Positions 212-14,561 of a stretch of DNA of 14,561 nt are shown here, piece after piece. Under the pieces are notes generated by a model. The model worked only from the letters and a program-made list of their open reading frames with translations. It was not told the origin of the DNA and made no database searches. Location: IMG/VR virus record IMGVR_UViG_2534682108_000011, one strand, 5' to 3'. Position 1 is the first letter of the stretch. Each line of letters opens with the position of its first letter. This stretch comes from a virus (lineage: Duplodnaviria; Heunggongvirae; Uroviricota; Caudoviricetes). A program made the translations under genes and the position numbers.

Positions 212-233
212 TGACTACACCAGTGACTACACC
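212..233. repeat. Tandem direct repeat TGACTACACC x2 (12-bp period), followed by small palindrome ACCGTTCGGT (231-240)
   Basis: Read directly: tgactacacc ag tgactacacc. Lies about 70-90 bp inside the left junction; candidate recombinase arm-type site. Confidence 0.35.
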
Positions 234-250
234 GTTCGGTGCACTGTATG

Positions 251-276
251 AAACAACGTGGAACAAATAGACACAA
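251..276 (+). promoter_or_regulatory. Site A: three hexamers AAACAA / GAACAA / ACACAA at exact 10-bp spacing (251, 261, 271)
   Basis: aaacaaCGTGgaacaaATAGacacaa; the 15-mer AACAACGTGGAACAA is identical to the one at 7715-7729. Confidence 0.5.
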
Positions 277-496
277 GAAATATACAGGCGGATCATCTTT
301 CCAGGGGGAAGCACACCAATTCATGAGGGGCGTTAATGTCGATATGGGGATCCCCACCTACCGGAATTTTTTTCCGGTTAAACGTTAATCAGGCTGGTGG
401 GCTTTACCTGTTCGGTAGGTGTTATGATTATCGTAATACCTTTCCCCCAATGGGGTAAAAGCATCAACCGTAACGAAAGTCGTTATGGTTGCCACT

Positions 497-571
497 GATA
501 CCCCAAATTTGGGTATCACGAGTAAGCCCCAAAATCTGGGTGTTACTCTTACTACCCAAACTACGGGTAGT
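497..571. repeat. Array of three inverted repeats (TACCC-N7-GGGTA type) with centres at about 507, 534 and 561 (27-bp phasing)
   Basis: gataccccaaatttgggtatc (497-517), ccccaaaatctggg (527-540), actacccaaactacgggtagt (551-571). Non-coding region. Confidence 0.5.
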
Positions 572-589
572 TTCCGTAGTTTCATGGTC

Positions 590-609
590 GAGTTGCAGAT
601 CTGCAACTC
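590..609. repeat. Perfect 20-bp palindrome GAGTTGCAGATCTGCAACTC
   Basis: Self-complementary by direct reading; centred on AGATCT and contains GATC. Confidence 0.6.
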
Positions 610-863
610 CCCCATTAACCACAGGCGAATTTCCGCCTTCGGTCATTCCTTAATCATCTGCGTAATCATAATGATTATTCAGCAAGCGCAATTTTGCGCT
701 TTGCTTAAAGTTCAGCGAGTTACCGCGCCGACTTCCTCAAATTGAGGTTTCCGAAAATATCAGCGGGTTAGCGATTAAGCTGACCATTAATTAAACTGCG
801 AAAATGTCGTAGTTGTGAGGGGTGTAGCCAACCCATTTTTGGGCCGTCGGGAATATCAACCAG

Positions 864-1145
864 TTACCGCCGCAACCGCTCCGGCTTCTTCCAGTGGTAC
901 GTTATTTTCTCCTTCTCCCGATACATCTCCACGCGGCGACGGTAGGCCAGCAACTCAAGAACTCTGGTTCGTATGTTGCGCATATCCACGCCATTAAGTT
1001 CTATACCATCACGGCGCATCACCTCAGCAACAACACGCGCATAGTTTTCGGCTGTCACGCTGTCCGGCTGCGTGGCCTGTTCGTCAGCCTGCTGGCTGAT
1101 TCCGGCAACGCGGCGGATTAATCCCGTTATTTCGGCTTCTGTCAT
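864..1145 (-). CDS. Hypothetical protein (93 aa) immediately downstream of terL
   Basis: ORF with ATG at 1145..1143 and an SD-like TGAGGT about 9 nt upstream; starts 14 nt after the terL stop. Charged, non-repetitive composition. No family recognised. Confidence 0.5.
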   Translation of the reverse strand: MTEAEITGLIRRVAGISQQADEQATQPDSVTAENYARVVAEVMRRDGIELNGVDMRNIRTRVLELLAYRRRVEMYREKEKITYHWKKPERLRR

Positions 1146-1158
1146 GCTGCTGACCTCA

Positions 1159-2820
1159 TTACACCCCGCTAAATTCTTCCAGTTTCTGGCGGTGGCTGTC
1201 GCTTATATCAAAAGCAAAATCCTCATGCTCTGCCTGGAATGTACCAAACGCCATCAGCGCCGCCACGCTCGGGTCTATCTTGTTCGGTGATTTTTTCTTG
1301 TTCGGCTTGATATTGGCGTTCGCGTCACTCTGCATCACGACGTTACTCATCGACCAGGACAACACCGGATCGCCACGATGCACAATCACCCTGCGGTTAA
1401 CAAAAACTTCGAACGATTTCGCCGCCGGACTGAATCTGAGGTAGGTTTGCGGGAACGGCTCCACCTCAAAACCTGCCCCCTGTAATTGCGTTCTGAGATG
1501 CGTGGCGTTCCACGTATCAAAGCCCACCAGCCTGATATTAAATTTCTCCGCGTCCTGCATGATGTCATCTCTGATCCGGTCGTAATCAATGCAGTCGCCA
1601 GGCGTTGTGCGTATCCAGCCTGCTTTAGCCCACTGACGATAGATGGCGCGGTTTTTATTGGCGGGGTTCTGTAGCTGAAATTCCGGCAGATAGTGACGGG
1701 AAACCAGCATAATGGTTTTACCGACCGGAAAGGCATAGCACACGCTGGAAATATCGCTGGTTGATGATAAGTCCAGCCCCGCGTAACACTCCTGGCCGTG
1801 TAAATCTTCCTCCGTGAACGTTCCGGCACACTCAGCCCATGCGCCGTTACCCATCCACGGGGTAGCCCCCTGGCACCAGATATTAAATCGCTTTGTCATC
1901 ATCTCCACCCACTGCGACGGAATACCCCGCGCTTTCTGGATGGTTGAGGCCAGTTTTTCACGATCGACGGAAACATCAATATTAGGGTTCGCCTTTATCC
2001 ACATCGCCGGATCATCAACCTCGTTTTCGTCGTCCAGTTCGTAAATCAGTACAAAAATTGAATCGTTAACCTCTTCGCCGTCCAGGATCTGGCAGCAATA
2101 ATCATAGTGCTGTTTACAGGCTGAAACGACGTTGCTGCCTGATGTGGTAATGGCAAATAACAGCCCTTCGGGACGTGCGCCCATCCCCAGCTCAAGCGCG
2201 GAATAAACGCCGTTATCGGGGTGCAAGTGGTATTCGTCCACGATGGAAAGGCTTGGGTTTGTTCCCTCGATGGTTGCCGCTTTTGCTGCCAGCGGCTTTA
2301 ACAGGCTGTTGCTTTTCGGGTGTATCACCTTATGCGCCTGAATATTCACCCGCCTGCGTAACGGTAGGGATAAAAGGCACATCTGACGCGCATCATCAAA
2401 GACGATCCGCGCCTGGTCACGGCTCACCGCTGCGGTGTAGATATCCTGCTGACCGTTCTCCATAATCAGAAACCAGTTAGCCAGAATCGCGGCGGTCGTG
2501 GATTTCGCATTTTTGCGCGGCACTTCGATAAAGGCGCTCGTGTATTTGCGCCGTCCGGTGGCCTTAACCTTAAAGCCGAGGATGCACGCAAAGGCGAACT
2601 GCTGCCACGGCTCCAGCTCAATGGGTCTGCCACGCATCGGTCCTTTTACGTGCGGGCACACCCTGGAAAAGGCAATAAACCGCTCCACAACCTCACGATC
2701 GAACGTGTAAAGGGGGCTTTTAAGGTCCGAAAAGTACCGTTTAACGGCCTGTTTCAGCCGTTTACAGGCCGGAATTTTGCCCGTTTTTACGTCTTCTGCG
2801 TACTTATTCCAGGCGGTCAA
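1159..2820 (-). CDS. terL: Terminase large subunit (553 aa)
   Basis: N-terminus MTAWNKYAEDVKTGKIPACKRL is typical of TerL; ATPase P-loop-like PRKNAKST; length and position after terS. Confidence 0.9.
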   Translation of the reverse strand: MTAWNKYAEDVKTGKIPACKRLKQAVKRYFSDLKSPLYTFDREVVERFIAFSRVCPHVKGPMRGRPIELEPWQQFAFACILGFKVKATGRRKYTSAFIEVPRKNAKSTTAAILANWFLIMENGQQDIYTAAVSRDQARIVFDDARQMCLLSLPLRRRVNIQAHKVIHPKSNSLLKPLAAKAATIEGTNPSLSIVDEYHLHPDNGVYSALELGMGARPEGLLFAITTSGSNVVSACKQHYDYCCQILDGEEVNDSIFVLIYELDDENEVDDPAMWIKANPNIDVSVDREKLASTIQKARGIPSQWVEMMTKRFNIWCQGATPWMGNGAWAECAGTFTEEDLHGQECYAGLDLSSTSDISSVCYAFPVGKTIMLVSRHYLPEFQLQNPANKNRAIYRQWAKAGWIRTTPGDCIDYDRIRDDIMQDAEKFNIRLVGFDTWNATHLRTQLQGAGFEVEPFPQTYLRFSPAAKSFEVFVNRRVIVHRGDPVLSWSMSNVVMQSDANANIKPNKKKSPNKIDPSVAALMAFGTFQAEHEDFAFDISDSHRQKLEEFSGV

Positions 2821-3160
2821 GCTCGTCCTCTTCTTCTGTTTCCGGTGGGTTTTTACGGCGGCTTATCGGGTCAAAACCGAGCAAGGAGGCCATTTTTATC
2901 ATCACCCTTTCAGCGTCTGATTTCGCGCTTAATGCGGGGTTTCTGCTCTCGCCGCCCTGACTGTTAACAATGCTGAACCCGCGCGCCGCAAGGTCTGCGA
3001 CGGCTTTCCGGTAAATGGAGTAGTTGACACAATACAGTTCCAGATTGCTCCAGTCGGCGGGGGTCAGGTCTCCCCGTTCCGCAAGCTGCCGCGATTTTTC
3101 CCGCCACTGCTTCACGGCGATGTCATCCAGGTAGGCGGGGGCTTTCGGTGGTCTTGCCAT
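2804..3160 (-). CDS. terS: Terminase small subunit, P27-family-like (118 aa)
   Basis: N-terminus MARPPKAPAYLDD and acidic C-terminal tail EEEDELDRLE; overlaps the terL start by 17 nt. Confidence 0.75.
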   Translation of the reverse strand: MARPPKAPAYLDDIAVKQWREKSRQLAERGDLTPADWSNLELYCVNYSIYRKAVADLAARGFSIVNSQGGESRNPALSAKSDAERVMIKMASLLGFDPISRRKNPPETEEEDELDRLE

Positions 3161-3282
3161 GCTTATTTTTCGTCAGATTATTTTTCAAAAAATTCCCGTG
3201 CATAAAAATTTGAGGAGGCGTTCGGTGCCCGGCGGGGTCGGGTTTGTCCTGAAAACGCCCCCCACCCCGTCATACAGCCTCA

Positions 3283-3465
3283 TCAGCGATTGCGGAAACA
3301 TTCCATAACCTCGCGGTCACGGTCGGTTAATCGCTTCGCTGTGATGCGTTCTGCGCGTCCTGACGCTTTATCTTTATGCCCTGTTTCCTGTGTCTTCCAT
3401 GCGTCACGCTGCCTTATAAGTCCACGGATAAGGCGGTTTTGTTCCCGCTCATTCATCAGCGTCAT
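3283..3465 (-). CDS. Possible small ORF (60 aa) in the HNH-terS intergenic region
   Basis: MTLMNEREQNRLIRGLIRQRDAWKTQETGHKDKASGRAERITAKRLTDRDREVMECFRNR; protein-like composition but no clear SD; overlaps the HNH stop. Could instead be non-coding cos-region DNA. Confidence 0.25.
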   Translation of the reverse strand: MTLMNEREQNRLIRGLIRQRDAWKTQETGHKDKASGRAERITAKRLTDRDREVMECFRNR

Positions 3466-3889
3466 ACATCCAGTTATTGCGGTTAGCGGCCCGTTCTTCC
3501 TCTTCATGAAATCCACCTGCGGCACGCTTGCTTTTTGTTGCCGGATCAAGCCATTTCGTTTTCTGGTTATGACACGCCTGGCACAATGGTTGATGGTTCC
3601 ATTCGGGCCAGAAGAGAACATCATCACCGCCATTAATCGGGATAATGTGATCCACCACCACGGCGGGCGTATATATCCCCTTCTCAAGGCATCGCACGCA
3701 TAACGGGTTTTTACTCAGATACATGGCGCGGTATTTGTCCCACTGTCTGGAGTACCCACGCGCGCGGCGGTGTCCTCGTCTGGCATCCTCTGCACGCCAT
3801 GCCGCCCGCCTGTGCTCCTCACACTTGCCGGACTTCACGCGCCTGTTACAGCCTGGTTCTGTGCATCGTCTTAATGGTTGCCACGGCAT
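3449..3889 (-). CDS. HNH endonuclease (146 aa), packaging-associated
   Basis: Cys pairs CTEPGC and CVRC, plus VDHIIPINGGDD ... NHQPLCQACHNQKT HNH motif. Sits next to terS/terL as in HK97-like cos phages. Confidence 0.85.
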   Translation of the reverse strand: MPWQPLRRCTEPGCNRRVKSGKCEEHRRAAWRAEDARRGHRRARGYSRQWDKYRAMYLSKNPLCVRCLEKGIYTPAVVVDHIIPINGGDDVLFWPEWNHQPLCQACHNQKTKWLDPATKSKRAAGGFHEEEERAANRNNWMYDADE

Positions 3890-4185
3890 CAGTACACCCC
3901 CACATCACGGTAAGCCGTCCAGAGCGCGCCAATCGTCATGGGTACGCGCGTTTTTGCGTTATCCGCTACCAGCTGGCGATTCTCGTACAGGTGAGCGATA
4001 AACATCATGCAGCCAATCTTTATGGCTGGCGTGAACTCCAGCCCGTCATCAAAGCGCCTGCCTATATGTATCTGGCACGCCTCAAGCGATGCGGCAATGT
4101 ATCCGCTGATTAACTGGTCTTCCTCGTCGCCATCGATGCGGCAATGGAGTTTCACTTCTTCCAGGGTGATAAGTTCTTCTGTCAT
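3889..4185 (-). CDS. Head-tail connector protein, gp6-like (98 aa)
   Basis: MTEELITLEEVKLHCRIDGDEEDQLISGYIAASLE matches the conserved N-terminal pattern of this family; start overlaps the adaptor stop. Confidence 0.7.
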   Translation of the reverse strand: MTEELITLEEVKLHCRIDGDEEDQLISGYIAASLEACQIHIGRRFDDGLEFTPAIKIGCMMFIAHLYENRQLVADNAKTRVPMTIGALWTAYRDVGVY

Positions 4186-4520
4186 TTTTCCGCGCCCTCA
4201 CGACAAAGAATTTCAAGGCGTGTCCTGGCGGCATCCGGCAGCGGCTGCCCGATGATATTCAGTACACGCCCCGCCAGCGGCCCCGTACTGACCTTTATCC
4301 GGCTGGTGGCGTTGATGTCCTTCCGGTACCGTATCCAGATCCTTACGGTACCAATCGCCAGCTCTGCACCCGATGAAATGGCCTCCTTGCTGCTGATCAT
4401 GTTCACGCTTGCCCAGAGTGTGTGACCGTCCTCCCACGTTTCGAGTATTTCGCCGGTTATATCCCTGGTCTGTTTCAGGGTCTGAATCGTTACCCTGTCA
4501 CGCAGTCGCCCTATGTTCAT
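4182..4520 (-). CDS. Head-tail adaptor / head-closure protein (about 112 aa from the MNIGRLRDRVTIQ start)
   Basis: MNIGRLRDRVTIQ is the family-typical start. ATG at 4520 abuts the portal stop (4517); the longer ORF-track start at 4562 would overlap the portal by 46 nt. Confidence 0.7.
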   Translation of the reverse strand: MNIGRLRDRVTIQTLKQTRDITGEILETWEDGHTLWASVNMISSKEAISSGAELAIGTVRIWIRYRKDINATSRIKVSTGPLAGRVLNIIGQPLPDAARTRLEILCREGAEK

Positions 4521-5728
4521 TCCGGTTTTTCTCCCTCGCTGATTTTTACTTCCTGTTTCCATGCCTGGCTGAACTCATCACCACCATCACGCGGGGACAG
4601 CCCTTCACGTTCGCGGGCTTCGTTCGGGCACATAACGCCGGATTTGATGCCGCGTTCATAGGTGGCAAAGCGTTCGCCAGGTGTGGCCCGTAACAGGTCC
4701 GCGCTGTCAAACTCCACCTGATACCGGATACCAGGTACAGGCGAGGCCACCAGCAGGGCGTTTTTTATCTGCTGCTCAAAGTTCGCCAGCCACGGGCGCA
4801 TCGTCATAGTGAGAAATGCGCGGCTTGCCTCGCTGAAATTGCTGTAGGTGCTGTTGCTGTATTCCTGCAAAAAAATCGGCGAGACGTTGAACATTCGGGC
4901 GATGTCTTCAATGGTGAAGCGACGGGAGGCCAGCCATTCAGCATCCTGATTACTCATGCCCAGCTGCTGATAGCTCATACCCCCTTCAAGGATGGGCGTT
5001 TTTCCGGCGTTTCTGGCCCCTTTGTAGCGTTCCAGTGCGGCTAATGCCTGTTTGCCTTTCACGCCGTCCAGCCATTCGCCTGACGTGATAACCCCTGCCG
5101 CCATCATGCCATCACGCATCACGCTCGCGCCGTGGCGTTGTTGGGCCAGCCCAAGCCCCAGCGATTCGCGGCAGATGGTTACAGGTGAGCGCCCCATAAA
5201 ACCGTCATCCGTGGAGTAACGAAGGTGGAGAACCTCCCACGGTAAATAGTTGCGGGTGTTTCCGGTGTAGGCGTCAGTGATGCAGTAGCGCCAGTTGTGT
5301 TCGCCTGTCTGCTCCACGTTCACCGACTGCGGCGGGTAAGGATGTAAAGCCACCGGAAAACCATCACGCCCCCACTGAATCACCGCATAAGCATTACCGT
5401 TTAACAGGCAGTGGCGGATCATCATTCGCTTAAACTGGTAGGGAGTCTGCCACGCGTTCGGGCGCTCGTTGAGGATGTGATCGACCGGATGAGAATCAAG
5501 CCACTCTCGGGCCTCCTTCCCCTTCTCATTGCGTACCAGGTACAGGTAACACGGCATGGTAGCCACCGCCTCAGAGATGACCGTGACGGCGTTCATGACG
5601 GCGGGCAGTGATTCCGCTGTCCCCGATGATACGTACTCACCCGACCCCGTGTTCGATGTGCCGGCCAGCGCCATAAATTCATCCAGCGTCATGCTGCGCT
5701 GCTCTTTTTTTCTTCTGAAAGGCCACAT
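4517..5728 (-). CDS. Portal protein, HK97 family (403 aa)
   Basis: Size, position between protease and adaptor, and overall sequence character of HK97-type portals. Confidence 0.85.
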   Translation of the reverse strand: MWPFRRKKEQRSMTLDEFMALAGTSNTGSGEYVSSGTAESLPAVMNAVTVISEAVATMPCYLYLVRNEKGKEAREWLDSHPVDHILNERPNAWQTPYQFKRMMIRHCLLNGNAYAVIQWGRDGFPVALHPYPPQSVNVEQTGEHNWRYCITDAYTGNTRNYLPWEVLHLRYSTDDGFMGRSPVTICRESLGLGLAQQRHGASVMRDGMMAAGVITSGEWLDGVKGKQALAALERYKGARNAGKTPILEGGMSYQQLGMSNQDAEWLASRRFTIEDIARMFNVSPIFLQEYSNSTYSNFSEASRAFLTMTMRPWLANFEQQIKNALLVASPVPGIRYQVEFDSADLLRATPGERFATYERGIKSGVMCPNEAREREGLSPRDGGDEFSQAWKQEVKISEGEKPE

Positions 5729-5729
5729 A

Positions 5730-6302
5730 TCACACCCCCGCTAAATCCGCCCACCAGCGGCGATTATCCGCACGCGGCATTTTTTCGGGGTGCTGCTCAT
5801 ACAGGGAACGGCGGGCCAGCTCCACGCCGGAATCAGGGTAAGCCGGTACGGATGTAACGGTAATTTCGTACAGTTCCGCCACCAGCACGGTGCGCACGCA
5901 TGGATCTGTTGTGGTATCCCATACATCCTTACGGGAACGAAAGCCAAAGCTCATGCCGGATATATCACCACGTTTAACCAGTTCGATAACGTCACGCCCT
6001 GTGCTGGTATCCGGTGGGGTAAGTTCAAAGCGTAACCCTGTGTCGTCCTCTTCCAGTTTCAGCGTGCCGGAACGGGTGCGCCCCAGTAACATGCTGTGGT
6101 CATGCTCATACAGGCCGCGAACGTCATTACCCGCCGCAAGCCACTCAGTAAACGCCCCCCGCTGGAATTTTTCGTAAAACTCCCCCCATAGCAGTTCTGA
6201 AAGCTTATCCCAGCGAACAACGTAGCCCGTCAGCGTACCGGCTCCGCTGGTGGTGATTTCCGATGACCGGATTTCCATACTCTTCATAATTTTTTCACCC
6301 AT
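5730..6302 (-). CDS. Prohead maturation protease, HK97 family (about 190 aa; true start may be an internal Met)
   Basis: MEIRSSEITTSG ... GYVVRWD ... GMSFGF are typical of HK97 prohead proteases; lies between capsid and portal. Confidence 0.85.
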   Translation of the reverse strand: MGEKIMKSMEIRSSEITTSGAGTLTGYVVRWDKLSELLWGEFYEKFQRGAFTEWLAAGNDVRGLYEHDHSMLLGRTRSGTLKLEEDDTGLRFELTPPDTSTGRDVIELVKRGDISGMSFGFRSRKDVWDTTTDPCVRTVLVAELYEITVTSVPAYPDSGVELARRSLYEQHPEKMPRADNRRWWADLAGV

Positions 6303-6341
6303 AAAACACTAAAGGGGCTTTTAAGCCCCTTCTGTATGCTG

Positions 6342-7499
6342 TTAATCGTCGTCCTGTGGCAGTTCCAGAATCTTGATCGCGTTCGAATCCACCACGCCAC
6401 CGCCTAAATATTTCTGCGTGAAAATTTTGATGAAGCCCGGCTCTGTGAGGTTGTCCGGTCTGGTGCGAACACCTGTTTCGTGATCAACAATGTAGTAACC
6501 GCGTTTGAAGTCACCCAGGGCAATAACGTTATCAGGCATAAACTCCAGATATTCGACCGGAAGGCCCAGCAACGTATCAGGATCACCCGCCTGTAAACGG
6601 TCGCGCCAGATGTAATCACCGTTCGCGTTCTTCACCTTCTGAAGTTTTGCCGCCGTCGTGGAGTTAACCACCCAGACCGCGTTTTTGCGGTATTTTTTAC
6701 GTAATGCAAATTTCAGGTCGATCAGCGGGTCCGCAGATGTCCACGCCAGAGATTCGGAAGGTTTAATTACCTGCAACGTACCAAAATCACGCTCTTTGTC
6801 GTTCTTCTCTGCACGGGGTACGGATAAAAAACCTTTTGCTTTTTTGTCACCGTCGCCCACAACCAGATCGCTTTCTTCGGTTTCCGTGAAGGTGTCGCCA
6901 ATCTCACCCGTCAGCCATGAAAGGATGTCCACATCGGAAAAATCCACGATTTCCTGTGTGGTGCGCGGGTACGCATAGACCGGATACAGCTTAATGCTCA
7001 CCTCGTTAATCTGCGGGGTGCTGGTCTGTTCGCGTGCCTTACCCTCTTCACCGTGGTTAACGGTCGCACCGCCAGCGGAAACAAGCTGCTTAAACTCGTT
7101 GCTGCTGATTTTCTTCACGGTACAGATGCGGCGCATGGTGGATTCATCCGCCAGCATTCGCATGATTTCGGTGTTCAGCTCGGGGATAACGGTATAACCA
7201 CCATCAGCGGGAACGCCTGTACTTAATGCGCGGGTTTCACCTGTCAGGATGTAGTTGCGTAGTTCTGCGGGGTCAGTGGTCTGACTGCTTTTACCTGGCT
7301 TGCTGCGCTCTTCGTCTGCAATGGCTTCAAGGCGGGAAATGTCTTTATCGAGGGATTCAGCTTTAGTGCGTAATTCGTCAAATTTTGCGCCCTCAGCATC
7401 GTTAAGACTGCGGTTTTCTTTTTCCGCGTTCTCCAGCATGTCGCGCATCTGATTTTTAATGGCGGTTTTCTGCTGGCGTAATTCGATTATTCTCGGCAT
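6342..7499 (-). CDS. Major capsid protein, HK97 fold (385 aa) with N-terminal coiled-coil delta/scaffold domain
   Basis: Charged, helical N-terminal ~100 aa followed by a capsid-like domain; adjacent protease. Confidence 0.9.
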   Translation of the reverse strand: MPRIIELRQQKTAIKNQMRDMLENAEKENRSLNDAEGAKFDELRTKAESLDKDISRLEAIADEERSKPGKSSQTTDPAELRNYILTGETRALSTGVPADGGYTVIPELNTEIMRMLADESTMRRICTVKKISSNEFKQLVSAGGATVNHGEEGKAREQTSTPQINEVSIKLYPVYAYPRTTQEIVDFSDVDILSWLTGEIGDTFTETEESDLVVGDGDKKAKGFLSVPRAEKNDKERDFGTLQVIKPSESLAWTSADPLIDLKFALRKKYRKNAVWVVNSTTAAKLQKVKNANGDYIWRDRLQAGDPDTLLGLPVEYLEFMPDNVIALGDFKRGYYIVDHETGVRTRPDNLTEPGFIKIFTQKYLGGGVVDSNAIKILELPQDDD

Positions 7500-7713
7500 A
7501 AAAAAAGTCCTGGGGTTAAGTAAGGAACTCTAGGACGCGGCAAAAACTCAACCGTTTTTCATAAGGAAATCAGCAATCGCACCGATCGTTTTCCCGCCTG
7601 GTAATGAATATTGGCGAGAACATTAACAGGCGGAAAAGTGGCCCCAGCGTCCTGGCACCACGGGCGAGAATAATCATGATTCAGTTCGGGTAAAATATGC
7701 CGATCCGCTCAGT

Positions 7714-7739
7714 GAACAACGTGGAACAACCACGAACAA
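7714..7739 (+). promoter_or_regulatory. Site B: GAACAA x3 at exact 10-bp spacing (7714, 7724, 7734), upstream of the capsid/packaging operon
   Basis: gaacaaCGTGgaacaaCCACgaacaa. On the transcribed minus strand the proximal TTGTTC could act as a -35 with a TATTTT -10 about 16 nt downstream (weak inference). Confidence 0.55.
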
Positions 7740-7752
7740 ATAATTTACAAAA

Positions 7753-7779
7753 AATGACAAAAAGCCGGATTTCTCCGGC
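7753..7779 (-). terminator. Rho-independent terminator after the PerC-like gene
   Basis: Stem GCCGGA/TCCGGC (7764-7779, loop TTTC) followed on the minus-strand RNA by UUUUUGUCAUUUUUU; 7 bp past the stop at 7786. Confidence 0.65.
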
Positions 7780-7785
7780 TGTTGA

Positions 7786-8058
7786 TTAGCTGTCTGGGTA
7801 ATTACGCCATATTTCATCGCTTACACCATCTATACCCATTTCAGCATAAGTGCGATCTACTGCCTTTCTCAGGTCTCCGAAGTTATCCGGCGGCTCCGGT
7901 GGCTTCTGTGCCTTCCTGGAACATTCCAGCCGTCGCATCGTAACCTGATGCCGTTCCTTGTCTGTCTCCACCAGCAGCATGACTTCACCCCATCGCGCCG
8001 CCGCCCTCCGGTAAAAGCCTTTCGCCTCGAGTTCTTCCGCTATGCGGTCATGTACCAT
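7786..8058 (-). CDS. PerC/ANR-family-like transcriptional regulator (about 90 aa)
   Basis: MVHDRIAEELEAKGFYRRAAARWGEVM resembles the conserved N-terminus of PerC-like proteins (from memory). Start at 8058 chosen because of a GAGGGGG SD and no overlap with SSB; the 130-aa ORF-track start is a GTG inside SSB. Confidence 0.5.
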   Translation of the reverse strand: MVHDRIAEELEAKGFYRRAAARWGEVMLLVETDKERHQVTMRRLECSRKAQKPPEPPDNFGDLRKAVDRTYAEMGIDGVSDEIWRNYPDS

Positions 8059-8068
8059 CGCCACCCCC

Positions 8069-8479
8069 TCAGAACGGAATACCGTCACCGTAAGGGTCAT
8101 CGCCTCCCGCTGGTGGCTGATTACCCTGTGTGCCTGTGGTTTTGCGTCTGTTCCCGCCAGGAAGTGCCGCACGGGCACTGATTACGCTGTCTGCAATAAC
8201 CTGATAACCCTGCCGCGTTTCCCCATTCTGTCCGGTCCACTGGCTGACCTGCATCGTGCCGGATACGCTGGCAACGTCGCCTTTTTGATGTTTAGCCAGG
8301 AAGTCGGCCTGCTTACCAAATGCGATGACCGATAGCCATAACGTCGCCTGCCCATCCTGCGCCTGACTACATGGCAGCGATACCGCCATACGCGCCAGCG
8401 TCATCGGTGTACCCTTGCTGGTCTGTTTTACCTGCGGGTCGTCCACCAGCCGCCCGTAAGCTGCTATCTGTGCTGTCAT
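8069..8479 (-). CDS. ssb: Single-stranded DNA-binding protein (136 aa)
   Basis: OB-fold-like core, Gly/Pro/Gln-rich linker and acidic C-terminal tail ending DDPYGDGIPF (compare canonical SSB ending DDDIPF). Confidence 0.8.
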   Translation of the reverse strand: MTAQIAAYGRLVDDPQVKQTSKGTPMTLARMAVSLPCSQAQDGQATLWLSVIAFGKQADFLAKHQKGDVASVSGTMQVSQWTGQNGETRQGYQVIADSVISARAALPGGNRRKTTGTQGNQPPAGGDDPYGDGIPF

Positions 8480-8754
8480 GATTCCACCTCTCCGGTTTTA
8501 ACGTTGATGGTTGTTACCTGTTCCGCTTCGGCAATCTCCCGCTCTGTCAGCGTGGCAAAATTTGCCGCCGTCGTGGTCATGAATGCGCTTATCAGTTCGG
8601 GATGTGCTTTCGCGTATCCTTCCCCCGCGTGGCGGTCTATCGTTCTGATTGCCACCTTTAAAGCGTGCTCTGTCATGTCTAACGCGCGATATTTCGGTTC
8701 TGTTCTGTCTCTGCGTTTTTTGAGTGATTTATTAAATTTCCCTGAAGTGTGCAT
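8476..8754 (-). CDS. Hypothetical protein (92 aa)
   Basis: ORF with a GAGGGGG SD-like sequence upstream; stop overlaps the ssb start. No family recognised. Confidence 0.45.
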   Translation of the reverse strand: MHTSGKFNKSLKKRRDRTEPKYRALDMTEHALKVAIRTIDRHAGEGYAKAHPELISAFMTTTAANFATLTEREIAEAEQVTTINVKTGEVES

Positions 8755-8802
8755 ATTTATTTTTACCCCCTCGTTTAAAAAGTTTTGAGTTGTGCCTCCC
8801 CT

Positions 8803-9028
8803 TGTCTACCTTATCTACCTTAGTGGCCCTCATACCAGTAATGGCGCGGCTTTCAGCGGGGTAGAGTGCTTTTATCCACTATCTACCCCGTGTCTACCTC
8901 CCTGTCTGATTCAGGTAAAATCAGGTAGAGAGGGTAGATAGTGGGTAGACAGTAAAAAAAGGCTATCTACCTAACTTAATGCACTGAATTAAATGTATTT
9001 TTCTTTACTCAGGTAGACAGGGTAGACA
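8803..9028. repeat. Iteron cluster, putative replication origin: at least 10 copies of TCTACC / GGTAGA in both orientations, flanking an A/T-rich segment (about 8950-9010)
   Basis: Copies at 8803-8810, 8812-8819, 8859-8865, 8881-8887, 8891-8898, 8924-8930, 8933-8940, 8944-8951, 8964-8971, 9012-9019, 9021-9028. Ends 15 bp downstream of the primase stop. Confidence 0.7.
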
Positions 9029-9042
9029 GCAATTACAAAAAA

Positions 9043-10797
9043 TTATAAAAACGCGTCGCACTCGTCTGTTGTTATTGCGTTAGTCTGCGTTACTCCCTTA
9101 ACTTTCCGCGTAATATATTCATGTCCGTAAACTTTCGCGGCTGGCTTCATAGCCTTGCCAAAGTCATTTACGTTTAGCGGTTTGCTCCTGCCTGCGTACG
9201 CCATAAACGCCAGATAGACGCGGTAAAGGCTGTTTCTGGTCGTGTACTTCACTGAATCGCCACCGCCGCCCATCATCAGGCCGCGTGCTTCCTCCAGAAA
9301 ATTCAGGAACTGGCAAAACTCAATAACCGGATCCGTCTGTTGCTTTATTGCCAGAGCTTCATCACCGTCACGCTGTTCCAGTAGTAAAGCCCGTGCCTTC
9401 TCAGGGTCGGTAAAGTTCGCCAGCAATCGGCGGATAATGACAGGGATTTCAGCCGCGATCTTTTCCGGTAGCTCCCTGTCTTTTTCGGCCTCACTGACGA
9501 TATTGTCGAAACGGAAAATCACGCGACGACGTGCCACACCTCCGGCCCGTTCGGTGAATATCATCGGGTTATTGTTGGTCGCCAGCACCACCGCCCTGAT
9601 TACCGCCGTGAAACGCTTTTCGTATTTCGGGTTAATTTCCACGGGGTCACCGCCCGTGATTTTCTTGATGCCCGTTCCTTCGCCTGTATATTTCGGCTGG
9701 TCAGCCAGGACGATAAGACGACTCCCGACAACCTGCGCACGTCCACCAGCATCATCAAGCGATGTCATTTCAGCGCTTACCGTGTTCTGTTTCCCTGCCA
9801 GAAGGCTGGCTATGTGTGTGAATGTACTTTTACCGCTCCCGCCGTCTCCGGTGGCCTCAATAAACATCTGCCAGTCGTACCGGTTCGCCATAATCATGTA
9901 CAGCGCGGCACATATACGCATCATCTTGCGCGGGTCTTTTCCGGCTGCGTGCTCAAGCCATTTATGAAAGTTTGGCGCGTTATCGCGGATGTTCTCCCCT
10001 GGTGCTGGTGGCGTGTACTCAATGCCGTTGTGCGTGGTGATCCAGTTCTCCGGCGTGTGCGGGGAAAATTCCCCCGTTTTCAGGTCAAGCGCACCATTGG
10101 CGAACGGCAACAAATCGCCGGACGGCTCGCCCATTGGTTCGGCAATAACTTTTAACGCTTCCACGGCGTTATTGATTACGCGCTTGCTGAAAGTGGCCCT
10201 GTGCTCTGAATAGATCGCCACCATTTCGCGGCTAAGTTCCATTGTGCTGACCGGACACCATACCCCGCCGCGCCATACGTGAACGATTTCACTTTCAGGA
10301 TGTACGCAAACGCCATCAAAGCGATCGGCAAGCAGCTGCGCGCGCTCACTGTCCGCCATCTGCGAAAGTTGCGCCTTTTGCTTTACCGGAAGCTCAATGA
10401 CCAGACCATCAGAAAGATTCTGGCGCTCACGGGCCAGATATTCGCGCCAGTTCTCCACCTTCTGACCGTGCATACCATCAGGGTAAAAATTTGCATCCTG
10501 TACGCCTGCCGCCGCCAGCTTCTGACCAATCGCCTTTATCATTACTGGCGCAAGATATCCGGCCCTGAATATGCGCACGGATTTTCTGCCTTCCGGCACA
10601 ATTTGCAGCTTATCCAGTTCGGATAACTGCTGCTCCCCAAGCCACACAGGAGGCTCATTATCTCCGGCCATACGCGCGTCATGTTCCTGCCATTGTTTTG
10701 CGTGTGACCAGGCATCACTACCCGCAAAAATAATGACTTCTGTTTCTTTGTGTTTTATGCCGCGTGACTGCTGTTTTACGTTCGGTGCCAGTTTCAT
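9043..10797 (-). CDS. Replication initiator: DNA primase with C-terminal P-loop NTPase/helicase domain (584 aa)
   Basis: Walker A GDGGSGKST in the C-terminal half; size and layout resemble P4-alpha-family primase-helicases; origin iterons immediately downstream. Confidence 0.8.
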   Translation of the reverse strand: MKLAPNVKQQSRGIKHKETEVIIFAGSDAWSHAKQWQEHDARMAGDNEPPVWLGEQQLSELDKLQIVPEGRKSVRIFRAGYLAPVMIKAIGQKLAAAGVQDANFYPDGMHGQKVENWREYLARERQNLSDGLVIELPVKQKAQLSQMADSERAQLLADRFDGVCVHPESEIVHVWRGGVWCPVSTMELSREMVAIYSEHRATFSKRVINNAVEALKVIAEPMGEPSGDLLPFANGALDLKTGEFSPHTPENWITTHNGIEYTPPAPGENIRDNAPNFHKWLEHAAGKDPRKMMRICAALYMIMANRYDWQMFIEATGDGGSGKSTFTHIASLLAGKQNTVSAEMTSLDDAGGRAQVVGSRLIVLADQPKYTGEGTGIKKITGGDPVEINPKYEKRFTAVIRAVVLATNNNPMIFTERAGGVARRRVIFRFDNIVSEAEKDRELPEKIAAEIPVIIRRLLANFTDPEKARALLLEQRDGDEALAIKQQTDPVIEFCQFLNFLEEARGLMMGGGGDSVKYTTRNSLYRVYLAFMAYAGRSKPLNVNDFGKAMKPAAKVYGHEYITRKVKGVTQTNAITTDECDAFL

Positions 10798-11093
10798 TTT
10801 TTACCCCTGAATCCGTTAATCATGGTTTTCAGCTTCTGGATGTTTGCCCGTGCCCTGGCGTTGCTGGTGGGCACGTTATGCGGCGCGGTCTGTACCAGAG
10901 AAAAATCACGCCGGAACTGATAAACAGGCATCACGCAATCATATTCGTAACCTTCACGGCGGTAAGTTACGCACCGTCCCGCCACGCCCTTAATCATTAC
11001 CGTGCCGCCGTACTGGTCGCGGTAAATATCGCCGCGCGTAAATTTAGGGTGAGTGTTGCCACTGGCAGTTAAGCCAGAATATTTAAGTTTCAT
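10794..11093 (-). CDS. Hypothetical protein (99 aa)
   Basis: ORF whose stop overlaps the primase start by 4 nt. No family recognised. Confidence 0.5.
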   Translation of the reverse strand: MKLKYSGLTASGNTHPKFTRGDIYRDQYGGTVMIKGVAGRCVTYRREGYEYDCVMPVYQFRRDFSLVQTAPHNVPTSNARARANIQKLKTMINGFRGKK

Positions 11094-11098
11094 TATTT

Positions 11099-11332
11099 TT
11101 ATTCTCCGGTGTGCTGTTCTTTATATATATCGTGCAATAGATCTATTTCTTGCAGTTCCATTATTACAGGCTCAAGAAGCGTTATTAATGCCGTGGCAAT
11201 TCTTGATTTTTGTTTGTTGCGTTCATTGTCGCCAAGTGTTTCAAGCCATATGCGTAATATTTCCATCATGCTTTCACTGTGAGAAAGTGCAAGAAATGCG
11301 CGGTCTATTGTTTCAAGGTAAATATCACGCAT
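11099..11332 (-). CDS. Hypothetical protein (77 aa)
   Basis: ORF with ATG at 11332, a GGGGA SD-like sequence upstream and a possible coupled upstream small ORF. No family recognised. Confidence 0.45.
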   Translation of the reverse strand: MRDIYLETIDRAFLALSHSESMMEILRIWLETLGDNERNKQKSRIATALITLLEPVIMELQEIDLLHDIYKEQHTGE

Positions 11333-11547
11333 ATTAATCCCCGTCCGTCGTTTTTCTTAAAATAACCTCTGTCACGAAATCAGCATAATCGGCGACGATA
11401 TTCAGTACATCAAGCCCCGTTGATTTATATTCTCTCGTGGAAAGTAAGAAAAAAGCCGCTCTAATAAGCTCTGGCATTGACGAAAGCGCATCAGCCGCAT
11501 CATCAGGAACGCCGGAAAATTACTGTTTCAGGGAATTAAAACGATCA

Positions 11548-11787
11548 TCACGCATAACCCCCCCCATTTTCACAATCAGCAATCAGGATGGCTTTAGCCT
11601 CATTCAGCGCCATATCCGCACTAAGTTGCATAACCGCCAGCGAATGAGGAACGAAAGCCCCTGCATATTCTGTTTCACTGGTGGCGTGCTTATGCGCCAT
11701 GTCAGCAATAACAGAAATATCAATAAGCGCGTGCATCAGCGTAGTGAGCGCGGCGGCTGCTGCGTCCGGTGTGGTTTTATTGCACAT
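11548..11787 (-). CDS. Hypothetical protein (79 aa from the MCNKTTPD start)
   Basis: Strong SD AGGAGG (complement of 11794-11799) 6 nt upstream of ATG 11787..11785; the ORF track's longer start lacks an SD. Confidence 0.5.
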   Translation of the reverse strand: MCNKTTPDAAAAALTTLMHALIDISVIADMAHKHATSETEYAGAFVPHSLAVMQLSADMALNEAKAILIADCENGGGYA

Positions 11788-11977
11788 GGCACACCTCCTG
11801 ACGAATACGGGCGGCGAATACAGCAACACAACCGGACGGGCAACGGCTACGCGCTTCGCGTTCCGTCCAGGCGGTTACGTGGATTATTTGAGATTCTCCG
11901 GCACTCAGTGCCAGAAAACGCCACACAAAGGCCGTTTGTGTGTGTACAAGGTGTGGTATATGATTTACGGCAACCAT
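11777..11977 (-). CDS. Possible small leader ORF (66 aa), or an untranslated leader with hairpins
   Basis: ATG 11977..11975 preceded by AGGAG at 5-nt spacing; its stop overlaps the next gene's ATG. It also contains a hairpin (11922-11942) plus U-rich tract, so it may be a regulatory leader instead. Confidence 0.25.
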   Translation of the reverse strand: MVAVNHIPHLVHTQTAFVWRFLALSAGESQIIHVTAWTEREARSRCPSGCVAVFAARIRQEVCHVQ

Positions 11978-12064
11978 AACGGCTCCTAGTTTACGTTGTT
12001 GGTTAGACGCCCCGTATGTGTTCCCAGCACTGCGGGGCGTTGATTTTTGTGTAATGGCAAGTAC

Positions 12065-12110
12065 AATAGTAATTACCATGTAGGTATAGTAATGAAGGGT
12101 AACTACCATG
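12065..12110. promoter_or_regulatory. Divergent promoter/operator region: direct repeats GTAA(T/C)TACCATG (12069-12080, 12099-12110) and ATAGTAAT (12065-12072, 12086-12093)
   Basis: Repeats read directly; the second copy overlaps the Arc-like start codon; TATAGT -10-like hexamer at 12084-12089. Confidence 0.4.
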
Positions 12111-12281
12111 TCAACACCATTAGAAAAACGTTCGCCTCCATACCAAATGCGATTACCGGAAGACTTCAGAGCGCAGCTAGAAGAAGCAGCTAAGGCCGAT
12201 GGCGACACATCTTTAGCCACTTGGATTAAACGCGTTCTCCGCAAAGAATTACAGCAACGCGGCATAGAACCCAAAGGATAA
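12108..12281 (+). CDS. Arc/MetJ-type ribbon-helix-helix DNA-binding protein (57 aa)
   Basis: MSTPLEKRSPPYQMRLPEDFRAQLEEAAKADGDTSLATWIKRVLRKELQQRGIEPKG: beta-strand (YQMRLPED), helix, DGDTS loop, helix pattern of Arc/CopG proteins. Below the ORF-track cutoff; found by manual translation. Confidence 0.6.
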   Translation: MSTPLEKRSPPYQMRLPEDFRAQLEEAAKADGDTSLATWIKRVLRKELQQRGIEPKG

Positions 12282-12323
12282 AAACTATCAGCGCCGTGGT
12301 GTGAGGTATTACGGCGCATTGCT

Positions 12324-12512
12324 ATGCAGGACAACACAATGACCGATAAAGAATTGACCAAAACATTATCACCGGCACGGAAAAGACGGCGCAGAAAGAT
12401 AGAACATGAATCAGAAAGATTCGCGCCATGTGCTTTTGCCCTTGAGCAATTCCTTAAAGAGTACAGGGAAAAGCGCTCATTGCAGGTATGGCAACGAACT
12501 GAACCAGACTGA
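12324..12512 (+). CDS. Hypothetical small basic protein (62 aa; may start at the internal Met MTDKEL)
   Basis: ORF downstream of the RHH gene on the same strand, followed by a strong terminator; KRRRRK basic patch. No family recognised. Confidence 0.4.
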   Translation: MQDNTMTDKELTKTLSPARKRRRRKIEHESERFAPCAFALEQFLKEYREKRSLQVWQRTEPD

Positions 12513-12607
12513 TTGCATTGCCCACCAGCCTGATAGCGGCTATCATCCCCGTGCTTATGTTTGGGATCACACACACAAACGGCGCAGCGGGTTATCTGTT
12601 CAGAAAG

Positions 12608-12636
12608 GCGGCTCCATTTCGGGGCCGCTTTTTTTA
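12608..12636 (+). terminator. Rho-independent terminator of the plus-strand RHH cassette
   Basis: 8-bp stem GCGGCTCC/GGGGCCGC (one G-U pair), loop ATTTC, followed by TTTTTTT. Confidence 0.7.
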
Positions 12637-12781
12637 TGCCTGAAAAACCCCAATTTTGTGGTTTTCCAGTCTCACCAGGGCGAACGAATCCCCGCCCACG
12701 TTCTGGCGTATATTCAATCTTCATGGTTATAGCTCTGTGTTCAGATGATTGATGTGTGGCGGCTGTGTGCCGCCAGCGTGA

Positions 12782-12970
12782 TTAATGAACTGCCTTGCAG
12801 CTATCCTTCCAGGCCAGAACCTCGGATAAAGACCAGCCAACGGAACGACCGCCAAGTTTACGACGTGATGGGAATTGTCCGGCCTTTTCCAGGCGGTAGC
12901 GGCATGAGCGGCTAAGGCCTGTTAGCTTTTCGCATTCTTTTTCACGTATAAACCGATCAGTGCTTAACAC
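12782..12970 (-). CDS. alpA: AlpA-family regulator / excisionase-like protein (62 aa, GTG start)
   Basis: LTGLSRSCRYRLEKAGQFPSRRKLGGRSVGWSLSEVLAW is the AlpA/Vis/TorI winged-helix signature; SD AAGGGG 5 nt upstream of GTG at 12970. Confidence 0.85.
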   Translation of the reverse strand: MLSTDRFIREKECEKLTGLSRSCRYRLEKAGQFPSRRKLGGRSVGWSLSEVLAWKDSCKAVH

Positions 12971-13128
12971 TATTGCCCCTTTCGTTTCTTAAAGAGTTAT
13001 TTCGTGTTCTATTGCGTTGGGATGTGTCTGATTGTGTCAGGATGATTCAGAGTTGGCAAATGTTGAGGTCGTATGGTTTACAGAAACAGGAATAATCAGG
13101 ATAAAATCATTTAAATTCATGTTAATAC

Positions 13129-13162
13129 AAAGGCATAAAATATTGTTTCATGCCTTTTTTCT
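13129..13162. terminator. Hairpin with T/A tracts on both sides; candidate int terminator (bidirectional)
   Basis: Stem AAAGGCAT/ATGCCTTT (13129-13136 and 13150-13157), 13-nt loop, TTTTTT downstream on the plus strand and a U-rich tract on the minus-strand RNA. Confidence 0.4.
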
Positions 13163-13251
13163 CGCTATTTAAAGAGTGATTCGCTAGTGTATAAAAAAAC
13201 AGTAACACATTAAAAATCAGCCACTTATAAATCTGTACACTTTTTCGCCTC

Positions 13252-13297
13252 TTGTTCGTAGTTGTTCCGCATTGTTGCTCATTGTTGCACGTTGTAT
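13252..13297 (+). promoter_or_regulatory. Site C: five hexamers TTGTTC, TTGTTC, TTGTTG, TTGTTG, TTGTAT at exact 10-bp spacing (13252, 13262, 13272, 13282, 13292)
   Basis: Read directly; reverse complement of the GAACAA motif at sites A and B; between the int stop (13344) and alpA. Confidence 0.55.
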
Positions 13298-13310: not shown

Positions 13311-13326
13311 CAGTATGCGCATACTG
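13311..13326. repeat. Perfect 16-bp palindrome CAGTATGCGCATACTG just downstream of the int stop
   Basis: Self-complementary by direct reading; no flanking U-tract in the right position for a terminator, so more likely a protein-binding site. Confidence 0.4.
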
Positions 13327-13343: not shown

Positions 13344-14561
13344 TTATTTTCTTCTGGCTACGGGTAGCGTGGTTACGTTTTCATGTGTTCCCGCCAGTAT
13401 CCCTAACCGCTCCGTCCACATATCCAGCGCATTGCGTTTAGCATCCAGATAACGGGAATGATTATAAACTCGCTGCATTCCTGGCATCTGGTGGCCTGTA
13501 AGCTGCTCCACGACATGCGGATCAACGCCTAAATCGTTCAGCATGGTTGTAAAGGTGCGCCGGATGTCATGCAGTGACCAGTGAGGATGATTAAGCCTCC
13601 TGTGCGCTAATCTTCCATACTGCGATACGCTGGCCTCCTGTTTCACTGCCCCCAGCAATAAGCCCGTGTGCCTGTTCTGCTCCACCAGCTGCGTGACGAA
13701 CGGCAGGATCGCTTCCGGTATGGGCCGGAATATTGCGACCTTCGTTTTGCTGTGCTCCTTCGGAACGGTCCATAGCATTTCCGTAAAATCCCACTCCCCG
13801 ATCTCCGATAACCTCAGTTCTACCGTTCTGGCTCCGAAGACAATCAGGAGGCGGATTAACGCGACGTAGTAAGGGGAAAATATTTTTTTATCCAGCGCCT
13901 GCAATAACTCGCCCAGTTCTTTGGTGCTTAAGACACGTTCGCTTATATCCGGTTTTTTCCCAACGTCCGCCACGTTCAGATCGTCCAGAACGTTGCTGAT
14001 TGCATAGCGCCGCCTACGGCAGAACTTAAGCGCCTGTTTGCACGCCTGTAGCACGAATCCGGCAGTAACAGGCGTTCGCTTTGCCACCTGGTCAAAACAG
14101 GCCAGCCAGTGCCGTAGCTCGCATTTATCTAGCGGCATAGCACCAATCTGCTGTATTACGTGATTATTAAGTCGCCTTTTCAGGGCGATATAATCCACGC
14201 GGTTTTCCTTTACGTAATACTCAAGCCAGTAGGTGAGCGCATCGCCAACCGTTACGGGCTTTAACGCTTCCTGTACGGTGTAATTCATCTCATGACGTGG
14301 ATTTTTCCCCTCAGCCAGCCATGCGCGGCACTGGGCGGCTTTTTCCCTGGCTGCTTTCAGACTCAGATCAGGATAATTTCCCAGCTTAATACGTTCCGGT
14401 CGTGTCTCTCTTCCCGTTCCTGCCCTGTAAGTGAAATACCAGGTTAATTTCCCTGATGTTAAATATTTCACGCTCAGATTTCCGCCATCGCTATAAAACG
14501 TGTTTTTCTCCGCTGGCTTACCATGAAGTTTCCTTAGCAATGTGTCGCTCAGTTTGTTCAT
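13344..14561 (-). CDS. int: Tyrosine site-specific integrase, P4-like (405 aa), start codon at the window edge
   Basis: N-terminal arm-binding-type domain (KLSDTLLRKLHGKPAEKNTFYSDGGNLSVKYLTSGKLTWYFTYR), C-terminal catalytic region with HDIRRTFTT and conserved His/Tyr context. Confidence 0.9.
   Translation of the reverse strand: MNKLSDTLLRKLHGKPAEKNTFYSDGGNLSVKYLTSGKLTWYFTYRAGTGRETRPERIKLGNYPDLSLKAAREKAAQCRAWLAEGKNPRHEMNYTVQEALKPVTVGDALTYWLEYYVKENRVDYIALKRRLNNHVIQQIGAMPLDKCELRHWLACFDQVAKRTPVTAGFVLQACKQALKFCRRRRYAISNVLDDLNVADVGKKPDISERVLSTKELGELLQALDKKIFSPYYVALIRLLIVFGARTVELRLSEIGEWDFTEMLWTVPKEHSKTKVAIFRPIPEAILPFVTQLVEQNRHTGLLLGAVKQEASVSQYGRLAHRRLNHPHWSLHDIRRTFTTMLNDLGVDPHVVEQLTGHQMPGMQRVYNHSRYLDAKRNALDMWTERLGILAGTHENVTTLPVARRK

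Follow-up and report, generated by a model that had tools for sequence, protein, structure and literature searches.

Which protein reads a short DNA word that recurs, exactly one helical turn apart, at separate intergenic sites of a small phage-related island? We address this question for a stretch of 14,561 nucleotides (IMG/VR record IMGVR_UViG_2534682108_000011), the whole of which is called the window here and which is identical to a stretch of the Escherichia coli O157:H16 chromosome NZ_CP062876. The window is a capsid-forming phage-inducible chromosomal island (cf-PICI) of the EcCIEDL933 type, inserted in tqsA, and its architecture is that described for EcCIEDL933 (10.1101/2022.09.08.507074). 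All of the island genes lie on the minus strand; they comprise int, alpA, a zone of small genes, a DUF4222 gene, a D5/P4-type primase gene, an SSB gene, a PerC-like gene, and an HK97-type capsid operon. The recurring elements are phased (G/A)AACAA arrays, and these are probably operators of AlpA, bound head-to-tail. AlpA, the 62-amino acid product of alpA (12782–12970, minus strand; Pfam Phage_AlpA, E = 5e-18), is the best candidate reader available from sequence comparison and the literature.

Three phased arrays within the window

Array A (251–276, plus strand) consists of AAACAA, GAACAA, and ACACAA, separated by cgtg and atag and thus in 10-bp phase. Array B (7714–7752, plus strand) has three copies of GAACAA at the same phase (7714–7739) and a fourth copy, TTACAA (7745–7750), at 11-bp spacing; on the gene strand, towards the capsid operon, it reads TTGTAA followed by three TTGTTC units. 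Array C (13252–13297, minus strand) lies upstream of alpA and has five phased copies, which are ATACAA, two CAACAA, and two GAACAA on the minus strand (on the plus strand TTGTTC, TTGTTC, TTGTTG, TTGTTG, and TTGTAT). The original prediction described all three sites as repeats of the hexamer GAACAA. Its coordinates and copy numbers hold provided that degenerate copies count, but exact GAACAA occurs only once in A, three times in B, and twice in C. What is invariant is the core ACAA, not the hexamer as a whole, and the spacing is exactly 10 bp. Among 49 distinct arrays, the consensus of the unit is (a/t)G(G/A)AACAA(c).

The placement of the arrays, as first described, holds in every respect. Array A is just inside the left junction, where identity to host tqsA ends at position 137. 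Array B comes right after a terminator (7763–7780) and is upstream of the capsid operon, whose capsid gene occupies 6342–7499. Array C is located between the int stop codon (13344) and the alpA start codon (12970), and is opposite in orientation to A and B, with TTGTTC-type units on the plus strand. The identical 15-mer reported for A and B is also present (AACAACGTGGAACAA, at 252–266 and 7715–7729).

A blind scan of the window for at least three copies of any 4-mer at exact 10-bp phase returned three loci, which are A, B, and C. In 300 dinucleotide-shuffled windows the mean was 0.29 phased loci and the maximum two, as compared with the three observed. All three loci contain ACAA/TTGT, and not even one phased ACAA/TTGT array arose in any of the 300 shuffles. 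Apart from the arrays of an island remnant, none was found in ~31 kb of host and prophage DNA flanking that remnant (locus L006).

Array and doublet modules at both island ends

The same criterion was applied to the full 17.5-kb locus (L001), which extends beyond the window. Only five places have any 4-mer at least three times at 10-bp phase; ACAA is common to four of them, with the close variant AAACA at the fifth. Array D, with four copies (GCACAA, CTACAA, AAACAA, and GAACAA), lies between the int start and the right junction (L001 16128–16161, equivalent to window positions 14628–14661). The fifth array, three copies of AAACA, adjoins the attachment (att) core (L001 16209–16233). The set of three sites proposed at first is therefore real but incomplete: D, the core-proximal AAACA array, the fourth copy of B (TTACAA), and the doublets described below had been missed.

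The att core is the identity block of the left junction, TGCTGTTAT (129–137), as defined by the end of tqsA identity and the sequences of both junctions. This 9-mer is found again at the right junction, 190 bp past the window end (L001 16247–16255). Between the left core and array A, on the int-distal arm, is a doublet, TGACTACACC-N2-TGACTACACC, with 12-bp spacing (212–233, plus strand), which is a candidate arm-type site of the integrase Int. An identical TGACTACACC doublet occurs on the int-proximal arm (window-equivalent 14597–14618), and these are the only two places in the island with exact copies. Each island end has a copy of the same ~65-bp module, in direct orientation, which consists of the TGACTACACC doublet followed by phased hexamers; arrays A and D are the second halves of these copies. 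The hexamers sit at fixed distances of 7, 17, 27, and 37 nt past the doublet, with array A occupying 17, 27, and 37. This register between hexamers and doublet is kept in eight islands.

Int, encoded at 13344–14561 (minus strand), is a P4-family tyrosine integrase with an N-terminal arm-DNA-binding domain (Pfam Arm-DNA-bind_3 and Phage_integrase). In RefSeq, int (L001 14844–16072) is annotated as a frameshifted pseudogene, yet the window has an intact open reading frame of 405 amino acids from the ATG at 14561. In other islands the int start is four codons further upstream than this ATG.

One island, that between thiM and rcnR (L035), separates the two parts of the module. All four of its doublet copies are changed to TGACCACACA, on both arms, while the adjoining arrays stay CGAACAA. 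Since the doublets changed and the arrays did not, the two elements appear, within the few independent lineages compared, to evolve independently and probably have different readers. We infer that the doublets are four Int arm-type sites and that the arrays are sites of a different protein.

An island remnant was also encountered. Between phoQ and roxA in L006, deletion has reduced a related island to a truncated int and both end modules (16098–16121 and 17390–17423). This island (H9), considered for comparison on account of its similar int and other content, was set aside as uninformative.

Conservation of the arrays across related islands

The original prediction had proposed a motif scan of the island and its relatives, and the arrays prove to be conserved at the positions of A, B, and C, although B is confined to islands with an HK97-type capsid and C is replaced in those with a second AlpA allele (see below). 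A profile search of genome contigs with an AlpA alignment returned almost only distant Bradyrhizobium-type relatives, which were not used; a scan of IMG/VR provided the useful set. Both end modules occur, in the same register, at five other attachment sites: phoQ/roxA (L002 and EcCICFT073), allC (L005), smrA/abgR (L008 and L036), clpS/cspD (L009), and thiM/rcnR (L035).

At the position of array C, at least three phased copies (three to six) are present in 64 of the 65 IMG/VR loci that carry the window's form of AlpA (allele 1), and the remaining locus has a one-base variant. In six aligned int–alpA spacers, the ACAA cores are in register and the 4-nt spacers between units vary freely. The region upstream of alpA in EcCICFT073 has six phased copies of the TTGTTC type.

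Array B is found in all 27 islands that have an HK97-type capsid (24 exact and three with one substitution), 197–222 bp upstream of the capsid start, and in none of 30 classical PICIs with a lambda-gpE-type capsid, EcCICFT073 included. Between two cf-PICI lineages, whose capsid proteins are 63–74% identical, the ~40-bp block of array B is the only well-conserved part of its spacer, and the flanks diverge. The arrays are also unaltered across three replicase types (P4-type primase, DUF927 primase, and RepA helicase).

AlpA as the probable reader

AlpA belongs to a PHROG family annotated as 'excisionase and transcriptional regulator'. A single-sequence AlphaFold2 model of the protein (mean predicted local distance difference score, pLDDT, of 87) has as its best match in the PDB the GIsul2 excisionase (8c3t; template modeling score 0.79, rmsd 1.2 Å). 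The model also matches, more distantly, the recombination directionality factors (RDFs) RdfS, Pukovnik Xis, and TorI. Over 53 amino acids, AlpA shares 47% identity with P4 Vis; it is 92–98% identical among the window and the related islands L002, L005, and L008.

Published work on homologous islands assigns AlpA several roles. In EcCICFT073, expression of AlpA by itself from pBAD is enough to activate a reporter of the alpA promoter (PalpA) and to trigger int-dependent excision and replication (PMC6092414). The protein is required for excision, replication, and transfer in PICIs of the EcCICFT073/EcCIEDL933 type (PMC6092414; 10.1101/2022.09.08.507074), and excision of EcCIMP1 and of PICMI requires it as well. 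Transcription of alpA is induced by helper phages through a factor that was not identified (PMC6092414). A literature search found no published description of the DNA targets of a PICI AlpA. The operators of RDFs are direct repeats spaced one helical turn apart, on which binding is cooperative and accompanied by bending, and RDFs with dual functions reuse them at promoters (PMC7498355; PMC11963761).

The island has several features of this dual att/promoter kind. Next to the tyrosine integrase gene is that of a winged helix-turn-helix protein with an excisionase fold, alpA being 373 bp downstream of int. The repeats are direct and one turn apart, with three to five copies at A, B, and C and four at D. 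Arrays A and D are in the att arms, starting 7–17 nt past the candidate Int arm-type doublets. Array C precedes alpA and array B precedes the capsid operon; both are conserved and are candidate sites at regulated promoters. Indirect support for AlpA, as a winged-helix protein of the excisionase type, being the protein that binds the arrays comes from its fold, its identity with Vis, the register of the arm arrays beside the doublets, the six copies at the AlpA-activated PalpA of EcCICFT073, and the like arrangement of sites in known dual-function RDFs; the geometry of array C, considered below, does not suit a simple activator.

A mechanism can be put forward on this basis. Each helical turn would accommodate one AlpA monomer, and the monomers would assemble cooperatively, head-to-tail, into filaments that bend the DNA. 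A helper phage would first switch alpA on, as reported for homologous islands. AlpA would then fill array C and boost its own expression; the autoactivation is taken from the literature, and array C is its presumed site. On arrays A and D, and probably on the core-proximal AAACA array, AlpA would sit beside the paired Int arm-type sites and bend both arms, so that an excisive complex with Int would be favored. In cf-PICIs, AlpA on array B would start or restart transcription of the capsid and packaging operon just past the terminator at 7763–7780. Position and conservation are what suggest this last step, and with it a role of B as a site of positive control. Most likely, AlpA would couple excision, its own expression, and capsid gene expression through one type of site.

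Promoter geometry and the second AlpA allele

Several observations weigh against AlpA as the reader, or against the simplest form of its action. To begin with, our search of the literature found no binding data, footprints included, for any PICI AlpA. The geometry of array C is a second point. Array C is inverted with respect to A, B, and D; on the gene strand, A, B, and D read TTGTTC and C reads GAACAA. A consensus scan gave a single conserved σ70-like candidate for the alpA promoter (13031–13059, minus strand), with a −35 element TTGCCA, a 17-nt spacer, and a TG-extended −10 element CACAAT, which is kept in five of six aligned islands. Array C lies ~190–240 bp upstream of this candidate. From this distance and the inversion of C it follows that a simple activator model does not fit. 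The DNA between C and the candidate promoter is AT-rich and has a conserved block and a hairpin (13129–13157).

A σ70 scan gave no consensus promoter downstream of or near array B. The proximal TTGTTC of B, together with TATTTT 16 nt downstream, could be a weak −35/−10 pair, which is not kept in the second cf-PICI lineage. Upstream of int, the scan likewise gave no σ70 consensus promoter. AlpA of EcCICFT073 left the activity of the int promoter (Pint) unchanged (PMC6092414), yet array D is upstream of int.

Islands with a second AlpA allele, 58% identical to the first (L009, L035, and L106–L117), raise a further objection, as they keep strong CGAACAA arrays on both arms. These islands are without a GAACAA-type array at the position of C, where three copies of AATATC(G) with 10-bp spacing are found instead. 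They have a weaker GAACnn array of two to four copies ~110–160 bp upstream of alpA, and some have an array of three TTGTTC copies just downstream of alpA. R21, R24, Y25, and the GGRSVGW wing are identical in the two AlpA alleles, and therefore a common specificity of both is possible. By sequence comparison, the arm arrays nevertheless appear to track the conserved Int N-terminal domain at least as well as they track AlpA.

In L108–L112, L115, and L117, the AATATC(G) arrays lie ~364 bp upstream of alpA (e.g., L109 1285–1308).

Other readers of the arrays

That last correlation leads to the first alternative, in which the arrays, at least A, D, and the core-proximal one, are extra arm-type sites of the Int N-terminal domain, and Int would also touch B and C. 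The N-terminal 100 amino acids of Int are 76–80% identical in all islands that keep the arm arrays; in L009 this domain is 76% identical, while AlpA is only 58% identical. The arrays flank the core on both sides in the same orientation, as arm sites do, and the D hexamer CTACAA is intermediate between the doublet core CTACAC and GAACAA. The P'1–P'3 region of lambda has three adjacent arm sites with a spacing of ~10–11 bp. The doublets, however, already supply four arm sites of the P4 type, one per Int protomer, and in L035 it is the doublets that changed on both arms, with the arrays unchanged. Arrays A and D are on the attP arms, as expected of arm sites, but array B is 5–7 kb and array C 1.4 kb from the nearest junction, and no doublet stands beside either one. 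Finally, the homologous PalpA is activated by AlpA alone, without Int (PMC6092414). We regard Int as an unlikely reader of the arrays as a set, although for A and D it is a rival candidate.

A second alternative takes the arrays as docking sites of a factor from outside the island, which would be either a Cox-like inducer of the helper phage or a host regulator such as ArcA or a protein of the OmpR/PhoB type. Phage P4 provides a precedent, in that P2 Cox is bound by three phased 10-bp boxes in front of the promoter from which vis is transcribed; the three exact 10-bp TTAAAG repeats upstream of vis are presumably these Cox boxes. Helper induction of alpA proceeds through a factor that was not identified (PMC6092414), and a different phased array at the C position, as in islands with the second AlpA allele, would be expected if this position set inducer specificity. 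In the most developed form of this idea, AlpA would not be the only reader, and the array upstream of alpA could be a landing pad for an RDF-like helper inducer acting like P2 Cox; its replacement by AATATC(G) would set which helpers induce, and the same word at the att arms and the capsid operon would let the signal trigger excision and capsid production directly. In a related variant, C and D, which are inverted and lie on either side of int, may be bridged by AlpA into a loop or may give rise to an antisense transcript that sets the timing of int expression. We hold these forms to be improbable. A strict register with Int arm sites at both island ends is instead the role of the island's own RDF. 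The helpers are diverse (lambda, phi80, and HK106; PMC6092414; 10.1101/2022.09.08.507074), whereas the motif is constant. As for host regulators, ArcA reads TGTTA direct repeats with 11-bp spacing, but the spacing in the arrays is exactly 10 bp and not the 11 bp of ArcA or PhoP, and the ~31 kb of neighboring host DNA is without such an array. Taken as a whole, an external reader is quite unlikely.

The last alternative, that the arrays are replication iterons (a second, crr-like origin) bound by the primase-helicase or else targets of the PerC-like activator, has in its favor that B is downstream of the replication module, by a short AT-rich stretch, that the P4 origin and the distant crr share one iteron type, and that perC is the gene immediately upstream of B, yet it is highly improbable given what follows. 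Origin iterons are ruled out by the separate TCTACC origin of the island (8798–9035) and by the constancy of the arrays across the three replicase types; origin iterons change with the replicase, as in L035, which has P4-like TGTTCACC iterons and still CGAACAA arrays at its ends. PerC, which had been listed as an alternative binder, drops out because the arrays are present in islands without perC: L005 and L036, which have a ProQ-like gene in its place, retain B; arrays A, C, and D are found in L008, another island without perC; and B occurs in four further IMG/VR cf-PICIs that lack the gene.

The sequences downstream of B and D also share a GATCGG word; being out of register and missing from the ProQ-type lineage, this word was put down to chance.

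Relationship to known regulatory systems

With AlpA as the most probable reader, the arrays belong to a known kind of system, that of an RDF which doubles as a regulator and has helically phased operators, and the closest example is P4 Vis. We took the P4 arm repeats from the 'attP arm sequence repeats' annotated in its GenBank record (L037). Of the six annotated repeats, four form doublets with 12-bp spacing, one doublet to each side of the core and both oriented alike; they lie 134 and 75 bp from the core centre, as compared with 143 and 90 bp for the doublets of the island. The P4 genome has a 4-mer at least three times at 10-bp phase in two places only, namely CGGA three times by the int-proximal doublet (3973–3996) and the 'ori type 2 repeats', TTAAAG three times, upstream of vis (9176–9205). 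P4 and the island are therefore alike in having same-orientation doublets with 12-bp spacing on both sides of the core, at similar distances, and a phased array by the int-proximal doublet. They differ in the motifs, which are GGGGGCA and CGGA in P4 as against GACTACACC and GAACAA in the island, and in that P4 has a phased array on one arm only, whereas in the island both arms have arrays and a further one adjoins the core.

Vis binds the attP region of P4 (PMC2603039) and represses Pint (PMC7286903). The part of the P4 genome between int and the core has the CGGA array, and the corresponding part of the island has array D and the AAACA array. Two Vis boxes are reportedly located between int and the P4 core (Cali and colleagues, 2004), and the CGGA array may correspond to a Vis box. 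The title of the same work has it that Vis is needed for P4 excision, and Vis is likewise said to regulate the P4 late promoters, as the title of a 1996 study by Polo and colleagues indicates.

The Apl protein of phage 186, P2 Cox, lambda Xis, and RdfS of ICEMlSym resemble AlpA in being small winged-helix proteins that bind direct repeats one turn apart, cooperatively and head-to-tail, with bending, and whose operator is shared by att and promoters (PMC7498355; PMC11963761). Unlike AlpA, which is described as an activator, Apl and Cox act as repressors of the promoters that flank their sites. A clear consensus site is lacking for RdfS, as against the nearly invariant ACAA core of the island. 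Arrays on both att arms, as in the island, are unusual.

Among PICIs, the AlpA of EcCICFT073 and EcCIEDL933, the master activator of Gram-negative PICIs, is essentially the same protein as that of the window. PICIs embedded in helper phages (PMC10111431) have a tandem doublet, tgTGTATTGCa twice on each side of the attP centre, co-oriented and ~81 and 132 bp away, which compares with ~90 and 143 bp for TGACTACACC in the island. The proposed binder of that doublet is either the Int arm domain or AlpA (PMC10111431). Its sequence is different, however, and the same report describes no neighboring phased arrays and calls the motif absent from other PICIs. Pseudomonas aeruginosa AlpA was rejected as a model, being a different and larger, Q-like protein. 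It shares with AlpA of the island only the name and DNA binding near a promoter; it has a Q-like fold, uses a single GGGACG element (ABE) between −35 and −10, and loads onto RNA polymerase.

Other features of the island

The capsid and packaging operon runs from 7499 down to ~860 on the minus strand and encodes an HK97-type capsid, protease, portal, connector, HNH protein, and terminase. Its first gene, that of the major capsid protein (6342–7499, minus strand; RefSeq annotation of the identical record), is downstream of array B. The intrinsic terminator directly upstream of B in the direction of transcription (7763–7780, minus strand) closes the replication/perC operon, and its stem has compensatory changes in the ProQ-type lineage. 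The leader between B and the capsid start contains a 17-nt inverted repeat with 88% complementarity and a 14-nt loop (7590–7637), with no T-run after it; only its CCGCCTG core is kept in the second cf-PICI lineage.

The primase gene pri (9043–10797, minus strand; D5/P4-type) has the replication origin directly downstream of it (8798–9035). In the origin, an AT-rich stretch is flanked by two inverted sets of TCTACC/GGTAGA iterons, and this layout is that of E. coli PICI origins (PMC6092414).

Three further elements were noted in the spacer between int and alpA. A perfect 16-bp palindrome, CAGTATGCGCATACTG (13311–13326), lies between the int stop codon and array C and may be the operator of a dimeric regulator; the window, L002, and L005 have it, with no more than one change, and the EcCICFT073-type spacer does not. 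The hairpin at 13129–13157, within the alpA upstream region, is followed by a T-run on the plus strand and is terminator-like towards int. It is conserved with compensatory changes in six islands, and could end antisense transcription or form a leader structure. A 20-nt direct repeat with 80% identity contains TTAAAG, which we take to be the core of P2 Cox boxes, and occurs just upstream of the alpA start (12982–13001) and 180 bp further up (13162–13181); in the alignment of six islands, most of each stretch is conserved.

Several classical PICIs have four to five copies of GTGAC at 10-bp phase near their int-distal end, a few hundred bp before array A (L008 5118–5152, L009 5063–5098, and many IMG/VR loci). 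This array is not found in the window and may be a packaging site (cos or terminase-related).

Implications for PICI biology

The finding offers no new principle, since Apl, Cox, Vis, and RdfS already act in a like manner. What appears to be new, and is the best account available from the sequences, is a concrete set of probable operators for the master regulator of PICIs, located on both att arms in register with paired Int arm sites and before the capsid operon of cf-PICIs. If AlpA is indeed the reader, the arrays would amount to a wiring diagram in which one protein of 62 amino acids couples induction, excision, and, in cf-PICIs, production of the island's own capsid. The 12-bp-spaced doublets would then be assigned as the Int arm sites of this integrase clade, and (G/A)AACAA at 10-bp phase would serve as a sequence signature by which island ends and late promoters may be found in genomes.

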